In this document: positions 1 to 3,000 of the stretch, in pieces
Layout of the letters: every line of letters begins with the position of its first letter
How positions within the stretch are numbered: the first letter of the stretch is position 1
NCBI RefSeq assembly: GCF_053078305.1
Contig: NZ_CP166879.1
Reading direction: 5' to 3' (one strand)
DNA: 64,000 bases
Position numbers: made by a program

Positions 1-3000
1 GCCATTCAGTATGGAACACACCTTCTTTATCAATGCGCTTATAAGTATGTGCACCGAAATAGTCACGCTGTGCCTGGATCAGGTTCGCAGGCAGAACAGC
101 GGCACGGTAGCTATCGTAATAGGCAACCGCAGCGGCGAAGGTCGGAACCGGGATACCGTTCTGTACTGCATAAGCAACGACATCACGCAGCGCCTGCTGG
201 TAGTCATCGGCAATTTGCTTGAAGTACGGAGCCAGCAGCAGGTTAGCGATCTGTGGATTTTCGGCATAAGCATCGGTGATTTTCTGCAAGAACTGCGCAC
301 GGATGATGCAGCCAGCACGGAAAATCTTCGCGATTTCGCCGTAGTTCAGATCCCAGTTGTACTCTTCAGACGCCGCACGCAGCTGAGAGAAGCCCTGAGC
401 GTAAGAAACGATTTTGCCCAGATACAGAGCACGACGAACTTTTTCGATGAACTCACCTTTGTCGCCAGCTGGCTGCGCTTGCGGGCCAGAGAGAACTTTA
501 GATGCGGCAACACGCTGCTCTTTCAGAGAAGAGATATAACGAGCAAACACAGACTCGGTAATCAGCGACAGTGGTTCGCCGAGATCCAGCGCGCTCTGGC
601 TGGTCCATTTACCGGTACCTTTGTTTGCTGCTTCATCCAGAATCACATCAACCAGGTAGTTACCGTCTTCATCTTTTTTGGTGAAGATATCTTTGGTGAT
701 GTCGATCAGGTAGCTGCTCAGTTCACCGTTATTCCACTCGGTAAAGGTCTGTGCCAGTTCTTCGTTAGAGAGATTCAGGCCGCCTTTCAGGAGAGAATAG
801 GCTTCAGCAATCAGTTGCATATCACCGTATTCAATACCGTTGTGAACCATCTTCACATAATGGCCTGCGCCATCAGCACCGATATAGGTAACGCACGGTT
901 CGCCATCTTCAGCAACGGCGGCGATTTTGGTCAGGATCGGCGCAACCAGTTCATAGGCTTCTTTCTGGCCACCAGGCATGATGGACGGCCCTTTCAGCGC
1001 CCCCTCTTCACCGCCGGAAACACCGGTACCGATGAAGTTAAAGCCCTCTGCTGAAAGCTCACGATTACGACGAATAGTGTCCTGGAAGAAGGTGTTACCA
1101 CCATCAATGATGATGTCACCTTTATCGAGATATGGTTTGAGGGAATCAATAGCAGCATCCGTGCCTGCACCTGCTTTCACCATTAACAGGATGCGACGAG
1201 GCGTTTCCAGAGATTCAACAAACTCTTTCACCGTATAGTAAGGAACCAGCTTCTTGCCTGGATTTTCGGCAATCACTTCTTCCGTCTTTTCACGGGAACG
1301 GTTGAAAATAGAGACGGTATAACCACGGCTTTCGATGTTGAGCGCAAGGTTGCGCCCCATCACTGCCATACCGACTACGCCGATCTGTTGCTTTGACATT
1401 GTTTACTCCTGTCAGGGGGTGGTCACCGCCGAGTGTGCGGCTTAAATGTGGTATAGATGTTAACTCACTCATAGAGATGGTGAATAGCATTACCTTTGCT
1501 ATACCACACTGAATGTCTCACCTTTTCCGTCATTTAAAACTTATTTATATGAAATTACTGAATTACTTGTTCAGTAACTCAAGGATAAGTTTTGTCTTTT
1601 CTTCCATCAGCGGCACATCACCGCGAGATTCCACATTCAACCGCACCACCGGTTCGGTGTTGGAGGTGCGCAGGTTAAAGCGCCAATCGGCAAAGGTCAT
1701 GCTGATGCCATCGGTGCGATCCACCGCCAGCGCCTCACGGCTAAAATGCTGTTCCACGCGGTTAATCGCCTCAACGGGTTGCGCCAGTTTGCTGTTGATC
1801 TCACCGCTTGCCGGAAACGCCGCCATCCGGTCGCGCACCAGTTCGCCCAGCGTTTTTCCTTTCAGGCACACCAGTTCGGCTACCAGCAGCCACGGGATCA
1901 TGCCGCTGTCGCAGTAAGCGAAATCACGGAAGTAATGGTGGGCGCTCATTTCGCCACCGTAGATGGCGTCCTCCTTGCGCATACGTTCTTTAATAAAGGC
2001 GTGTCCGGTTTTCGACATTACCGGGGTGCCGCCTGCGGCAGTCACCACATCAACGGTGTTCCAGGAGAGACGTGGATCGTGGATGATCTTCGCGCCGGGA
2101 TTTTTTTCGAGGAATGCTTCTGCCAGCAGACCGACAATGTAGTAGCCCTCGATAAACTGCCCTTTTTCGTCAAACAGGAAACAGCGGTCAAAATCGCCAT
2201 CAAAGGCAATGCCCATATCCGCGCCGTGTTTGATGACCGCATTACGGGTGTCGTCGCGGCATTCTGGCAGTAGCGGGTTAGGAATACCGTTGGGGAAATT
2301 GCCGTCCGGCGTGTTGTGCACTTTGATTAATTCCACGGGTGCGCCGAGGGCTTTAAAGCGGGCTTCAATGGCGTCCACTACCGGCCCCGCTGCGCCGTTC
2401 CCGGAGTTAATCACCAGCTTGAGCGGCGTGAGGTTTTTGACGTTGATATAACCGAACAGGTGATCAACGTAAGCGTCACGCAGATTGATTTGCTGATAGC
2501 GACCGCGTTTGGTTTCATCGACGGGAGGAAAGTCGTTGGCTTCTGCCAGGCGCTGGACATCGCGCAGTCCGGTATCACCGCTGATCGGGCGAGCCCCTTC
2601 GCGCACGAGTTTCATGCCGTTGTAATCCATCGGGTTATGGCTGGCGGTAACTTCGATGCCGCCATCCACGCCGAGATGGAACGTGGCGAAATAGATCTCT
2701 TCGGTGCCGGACATGCCAATATCCAGCACATCGACGCCCGCATCCTGTAAACCTTTCGCCAGCGCCAGTTTTAAGGTTTCGCTGGTGAGGCGGACATCAC
2801 CGCCTAACACAATGGTTTTCGGTTTGAGAAATTCGCCATAGGCGCGACCAATGCGCCACGCAATATCTTCATTCAGTTCTTCGCCTAATTTCCCGCGAAT
2901 ATCATAGGCTTTAAAGCAGGTTAATTTTTTCATATAAAAACCTTACCAATAATAAAATTATTTATGCGCAAACAATTGCATTAGTTTTGAGATTTTTCTG

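Follow-up and report, generated by a model that had tools for sequence, protein, structure and literature searches.

We analyzed a window of 64,000 nt from an E. coli genome (contig NZ_CP166879.1 of RefSeq assembly GCF_053078305.1), the first 40 kb of which hold the gnd, O-antigen and colanic acid region (Table 1). The genes are ordered gnd, manB, GT2, manC, gmm, fcl, gmd, glycosyltransferases, galE, wzy, wzx and galF, followed by gne and the wca genes. manB is the final gene before gnd. It sits between galF and gnd, in the O-antigen cluster and outside the wca cluster. We assigned the cluster to the O11 family based on 99% identity over 6 kb to RefSeq genomes in which wzx and wzy are annotated 'O11 family'. 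The O11 cluster is present in 97 of 5,426 complete genomes. No complete RefSeq E. coli genome contained the O11 locus together with the cpsG allele found in the window, and the nearest allele to that cpsG among those genomes came from an O119 strain.

Table 1. Features of the 64,000-nt window, with positions counted from its first nucleotide.
Feature	Position	Strand	Description
E. coli gnd - O-antigen - colanic acid region	first 40 kb	minus throughout	
gnd	1-1399	minus	truncated by window start
manB-gnd intergenic region	1400-1562	.	accompanies the manB tail across serogroups
O11-family O-antigen cluster	from manB (1563-2933) to wzx (ending 14127)	minus	
manB, O11 phosphomannomutase gene	1563-2933	minus	intact, 456 aa; identified by ORF and NCBIfam NF011943
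Residual low-GC tail of manB	1563-1600	minus	38 nt, codons 445-456 and stop; 17/38 positions differ from cpsG
cpsG-type (colanic-acid-type) tract of manB	1601-2933	minus	CDS nt 1-1333; 97.1% identity, GC 0.553
Internal patch of manB	1624-2544	minus	CDS nt 390-1310 (921 bp); all 22 differences from the common O11 allele
gmd, O11 copy	6612-7733		intact
galF, gne, then wca genes	colanic acid cluster ends with wza at 39617		
REP/BIME arrays	20752-20939 and 25355-25461		
cpsG, colanic acid cluster	23896-25265	minus	pseudogene here; 1-base deletion at CDS nt 271
cpsB	25458-26894		colanic acid cluster
gmd, colanic acid copy	29567-30687	minus	1-base deletion at 29928
yegH, remaining ORF	40209-40901		
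Mu-like prophage	40898-64000		to window end

Repeats and a prophage are also present in the window. In the REP/BIME arrays, the wcaK-wzxC spacer holds 1.9 copies of a 96-nt unit, to which a copy in the cpsB-cpsG spacer is related. The arrays are missing or vary in copy number across strains. REP elements in the wcaK-wzxC and cpsB-cpsG spacers were reported previously (Iguchi et al. 2011, PMC3158064). The Mu-like prophage contains a Mu transposase C-terminal domain, DUF935 and head genes, and begins with TGTAACCAGG. It disrupts yegH (TerC family), leaving an ORF of 230 aa compared to about 527.

We found that nearly all of manB aligns with cpsG of the colanic acid cluster. In a local alignment, the two genes were colinear from the ATG to CDS nt 1333, with 1294 of 1332 positions identical and a single 1-base gap. 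The alignment consists of two blocks: positions 2933-2664 match 25265-24996 (267/270 identical), and positions 2662-1601 match 24995-23934 (1027/1062 identical). It begins exactly at both start codons (2933 and 25265) and stops at 1601 and 23934. The sequences 5' of the ATG are unrelated at the two loci, as are the 3' flanks, and there is no alignment past CDS nt 1333. The GC content of the tract (0.553) is like that of cpsG (0.555), whereas that of the tail and intergenic region is 0.378 and that of the other O11 genes is 0.31-0.39. No direct repeat in the first 41 kb is larger than the manB-cpsG pair, whose copies lie approximately 22 kb apart. Chance cannot account for 1.33 kb at 97% identity.

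The first-pass annotation had described manB as an almost base-for-base match to cpsG, with colanic-like high GC and low-GC flanks. The sharp identity block and the step in composition confirm the overall structure: the breakpoints are abrupt, the flanks are unrelated, and we did not see uniform divergence along the gene. The near identity is real (97.1%), but 'almost base for base' overstates it, as there are 38 substitutions. The matching locus was also correct, with an end (23925) about 9 nt off from that in our alignment (23934). The gene does have a low-GC end, although it comprises 38 nt (12 codons and the stop) and not the approximately 14 codons proposed.

All 38 substitutions between manB and cpsG are synonymous, third-position changes. 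Therefore, residues 1-444 are identical in ManB and CpsG. Of the final 12 residues, 7 differ. ManB matched the NCBIfam model NF011943 ('phosphomannomutase CpsG') over residues 1-456 of 456, with a score of 1053.7 bits (cut-off 801). CpsG/ManB proteins of this family belong to the alpha-D-phosphohexomutase superfamily. The motifs TASHNP (96), DGDFDR (245), GEMSAHH (327) and RTSNTEP (422) are all present. From the superfamily, we take these to be the loops for the catalytic phosphoserine, Mg binding (DxDxDR), sugar binding and phosphate binding. Because residues 1-444 are identical to those of CpsG, ManB is expected to have Man-6-P to Man-1-P mutase activity. manB would then be a functional phosphomannomutase gene that provides mannose-1-phosphate for the GDP-mannose/GDP-L-fucose pathway of the O11 O antigen.

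We compared the locus to that in 12 further genomes (five O11, three O6, and one each of O7, O184, O157 and O119) and to an additional locus from one deletion strain (FDAARGOS_1249, described below). manB also adjoins gnd as the final gene in the O6 strains F11, GABEEC10 and 99-3165, the O7 strain 8178, and the O184 strain C3728. The O6, O7 and O184 genes have the same low-GC tail and junction as O11 and a homologous manB-gnd spacer, although the genes upstream are unlike those of O11. The 38-nt tail and the 3' junction at nt 1333/1334 (...CTGATGGAAG up to the junction, AAAAGAC after it) are identical in O6, O7, O11 and O184, and the other O11 strains have the same boundaries as the window. 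In the complete genomes, the region 1400-1640 (tail and spacer) was covered to at least 80% in 444 of 5,426, compared to the 97 that have the O11 cluster. Since the 3' breakpoint and tail are common to four serogroups, the boundary was inherited. It is not a private breakpoint of this strain. In addition, the low-GC 3' tail that remains indicates that an original low-GC manB was overwritten.

The 5' ends are less uniform. O6 and O7 manB have kept 3-4 codons of their own at the start, where O11 and O184 manB have ATGAAAAAATTA, as in cpsG. Because the bases there are AT-rich anyway, the position of the O11 5' breakpoint is confined only to the stretch between the ATG and about nt 12. The 3' part of the O184 cluster (C3728, 27852-34030), gmd-fcl-gmm-manC-GT2-manB, corresponds in full to that of O11, and its manB has both the cpsG-like start and the O11 tail, which points to a module common to the two serogroups.

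A similar manB is known from O157. The O157 gene is >95% identical to cpsG and more divergent than other genes of its cluster, which was attributed to gene conversion, and there was no positive selection (Iguchi et al. 2011, PMC3158064). According to Samuel et al., as cited in PMC3158064, the original O157 manB was replaced by the colanic acid gene. We observed a near-complete cpsG-type replacement in manB of O157:H7 strain FRIK2533. The O157 and O11 genes are alike in their identity to cpsG (>95%), high GC amid low-GC genes, extra divergence within the serogroup, and purifying selection. They differ at their ends. The low-GC tail of O157 manB is another one, its junction comes about 12 nt sooner, and codons 2-4 are its own. 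The gene is followed by an IS remnant and perB, whereas O11 manB adjoins gnd. Because the tail and junction differ, the replacement in O157 was an independent event. In both of these independent lineages, the tract ends just outside the outermost conserved motifs, FKAYDIRG (N-terminal) and NVESRGD (C-terminal). The limits of the tract would thus seem to be set by homology with the old gene. Possibly, the ends were pushed outward stepwise to FKAYDIRG and NVESRGD, where homology fades.

We found that manB and cpsG alleles are intermixed. Among 7 manB and 7 cpsG alleles, there were 48 shared polymorphic sites and no fixed differences within the tract; fixed differences between the two genes start at nt 1334. 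In a neighbour-joining tree of 26 sequences, manB and cpsG were interleaved. The shared polymorphism, the lack of fixed sites and the interleaved tree indicate recurrent exchange between the paralogs, and not a single recent event.

The O11 strains contain a record of one such exchange. Compared to the O11 strains MB06232 and FORC064, the tail and spacer of the window are 100% identical (0/201 differences). The O11 genes have 17-18 differences in 11194 nt, and the manB tract has 22-24 in 1333. All 22 of the differences from MB06232 fall within the internal patch; about 2 would be expected at the rate of the cluster. The excess in manB, approximately 10 times the divergence of the flanking O11 genes, is highly significant (Poisson P = 2e-15). 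The patch is flanked by identical sequence, 201 nt on the manB-gnd side and about 2.4 kb upstream, so it did not arrive with gnd. The patch marks an exchange that took place after the last common ancestor of the O11 cluster.

The donor of the patch was not the resident cpsG, and we found no donor in the 5,426 complete genomes. In those genomes, the best match to the full tract of the window's manB was to other O11 manB alleles (98.3%), and the best match to its central 661 nt was to cpsG of single-copy strains (98.2%). The exchange might have occurred in a former host of the O11 cluster or with imported DNA. There are no Chi sites in manB and cpsG, and there are 9 elsewhere in the wca region.

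Based on these results, we think it very probable that the O11 manB is an old, inherited chimera of the colanic acid type, and that it has remained in a single allele pool with cpsG through repeated ectopic exchange. Our results might also indicate that there is no ongoing exchange, and that each serogroup captured manB once from the cpsG of its host, followed by ordinary divergence and hitch-hiking with recombination on the gnd side. The distances fit such a capture. In the 12 genomes, the mean manB-cpsG distance was 44.1 differences for the cpsG of the same genome and 46.6 for that of other genomes, equal to the distance between cpsG alleles (mean 42.6). Also, recombination is known to be heavy beside gnd, which itself differs by 2.4-4.6% between O11 strains. 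However, the 22 differences in the window's manB are strictly within the gene, between the identical flanks described above, and even where the clusters of O11 strains are nearly identical, 6-49 differences separate their manB alleles. The 3' junction common to four serogroups further argues against separate captures. We therefore consider single capture unlikely.

A recent intragenomic conversion, in which the resident cpsG was copied onto manB and the boundaries of the tract are the breakpoints of that event, is quite improbable, more so than single capture. The sharp block with its abrupt ends speaks for such a copy. The resident cpsG is also a relatively close relative: in the common tract, the window's manB has 38 differences from it and 31-45 differences from cpsG of the 12 other strains, making the resident gene second closest of the 13 alleles. 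However, it is the cpsG of another strain that is closest, with 31 differences. The 38 synonymous differences from the resident gene are spread along manB, the longest identical run being 128 nt, and both the junction and the tail are found in other O11 strains and in O6, O7 and O184. The near-copy of the resident cpsG implied by the first-pass annotation is contradicted by these differences. Its proposal of gene conversion between the clusters was right in kind, but wrong about the timing and the donor.

More generally, there was almost no own-genome signal in the 12 genome pairs tested, out of roughly 1,000 genomes with two copies, a total estimated from 5,723 places in 4,688 genomes. The sole clear exception was the O6 strain GABEEC10 (manB 4716-6086, cpsG 24199-25569), in which manB has 23 differences from its own cpsG and at least 33 from any other. 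The GABEEC10 manB is a candidate for a more recent intragenomic exchange.

The other duplicated genes of the GDP-fucose pathway do not resemble manB. Comparing the O11 and colanic acid copies, gmd-fcl is 68.6% identical in DNA, and the proteins are 71% (Fcl), 59% (ManC/CpsB) and 49% (Gmm) identical. DNA identity of the duplicated pathway genes other than manB is 66-69%. In the O6, O7 and O157 loci, manC is low-GC and at most 67% identical to cpsB. Because the other duplicated genes are far diverged, the high similarity is specific to manB. It is extremely unlikely that this similarity is an assembly or polishing artefact, or that it reflects strong purifying selection on two old paralogs: the proteins are indeed identical over 444 residues, but conservation extends to 88-90% of synonymous sites, in contrast to the widely diverged tail and other paralog pairs, and the same structure is found in many independent complete genomes. 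We also considered an exchange that reaches the other duplicated GDP-fucose genes. This was ruled out by their low identity and the low-GC manC.

The history that we favor, an old chimeric manB that shares an allele pool with cpsG, would have begun when cpsG sequence replaced nearly all of an ancestral low-GC O-antigen manB, starting near the ATG and ending at nt 1333, so that the 38-nt tail remained. The two genes were probably only about 67% identical at the time, a point against this history. The tail, junction and spacer would then have been inherited at the gnd end of O6, O7, O11 and O184, with the O157 equivalent made independently. Afterwards, manB and cpsG across E. coli would have behaved as a single allele pool, with short patches swapped repeatedly, presumably by RecA-type ectopic recombination. 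The route could be gene conversion between the copies in one cell, or recombination of incoming cpsG or manB DNA with either copy. With almost no own-genome signal, intragenomic conversion is inseparable from exchange with imported DNA. Such recurrent swapping would prevent the paralogs from ever building up fixed differences. In the lineage of the window, the patch in manB would have been replaced after the O11 ancestor, from a donor other than the present resident cpsG.

RecA-dependent conversion between dispersed duplicates underlies concerted evolution of bacterial paralogs, for example tufA and tufB. In Salmonella enterica, Jensen and Reeves reportedly described in 2001 colanic-acid-like manB and manC genes in O-antigen clusters. 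As in the E. coli locus, an O-antigen pathway gene there would have been replaced by or homogenized with its colanic acid paralog; in contrast, manC is unaffected in the E. coli loci that we examined.

The cpsG gene in the window is frameshifted. One base is missing at CDS nt 271 (window 24995/24996), so that the frame from the ATG ends after 106 codons. The downstream ORF starts at Met102, past the catalytic Ser98. The cpsG allele of GPEC996 has 0 differences from that of the window in 1308 columns, but does not have the deletion. Because cpsG is frameshifted, the window has no intact phosphomannomutase ORF other than manB, in agreement with the first-pass annotation. The colanic acid gmd also has a 1-base deletion relative to GPEC996 (ACGC[C]GG), resulting in an ORF of 302 aa compared to 373 aa. 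The two deletions are in the same sequence context, CGC[C].

These deletions may be real mutations or sequencing errors. Over the roughly 38 kb that could be aligned, even in the low-GC cluster with its many homopolymers, we found no further indel, evidence that the assembly is not error-prone in general. The common CGC[C] context, however, weighs on the other side. Both of the frameshifted colanic acid genes have intact paralogs in the O11 cluster, and we estimate, by gene length, that the chance of both deletions falling in duplicated genes is about 0.06. It is conceivable, though we would not assume it, that the deletions are real and that the strain is losing its redundant colanic acid copies of the GDP-fucose genes, with the O-antigen manB and gmd supplying both polymers. 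If so, ManB, with residues 1-444 the same as those of intact CpsG, would take over the colanic acid supply seamlessly.

Recombination between manB and cpsG has been observed in the laboratory. In E. coli B, where the two genes are 96% identical, 7 rearrangements of the long-term evolution experiment (LTEE) arose by recombination between them (Raeside et al. 2014, PMC4173774). As in the window, the two phosphomannomutase genes of REL606 form a direct repeat (~96% identity) with a spacing of about 22-23 kb. When the repeats of REL606 recombine, the O-antigen genes are lost together with part of the colanic acid cluster (PMC4173774). Those events are crossover deletions and not conversions, and the window has both copies and no deletion.

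We found a natural counterpart of the LTEE manB-cpsG deletions, derived from an O11 locus. In FDAARGOS_1249 (NZ_CP069459.1, 1049-5527), the gene order is cpsB, a hybrid phosphomannomutase gene, and gnd, as produced by a crossover between manB and cpsG. The hybrid gene has the cpsB-cpsG spacer upstream and the manB tail at its 3' end, and its protein is the O11 ManB of MB06232. The O11 cluster, galF, gne and wcaJ-wcaM are absent from this strain.

In every feature that we tested, the O11 manB is a colanic-acid-type chimeric manB like those known from O157 and E. coli B. Chimeras of this kind had been described in E. coli before, and the O11 locus is one further example. A literature search found no paper on O11 manB specifically. 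The junction shared by O6, O7, O11 and O184 is a small addition; we found no paper that lists it.

In every genome that we examined, the RefSeq annotation (PGAP) names the O-antigen manB 'cpsG: colanic acid biosynthesis phosphomannomutase CpsG', a consequence of the near identity of the two genes. manB is unusable as a serogroup marker, and it skews phylogenies of the cluster. Through its 1.3-kb direct repeat, the locus carries a deletion switch of its own, which removes the O antigen along with half of the colanic acid genes. Together, manB and cpsG are a textbook-style pair of dispersed paralogs held alike by recombination.
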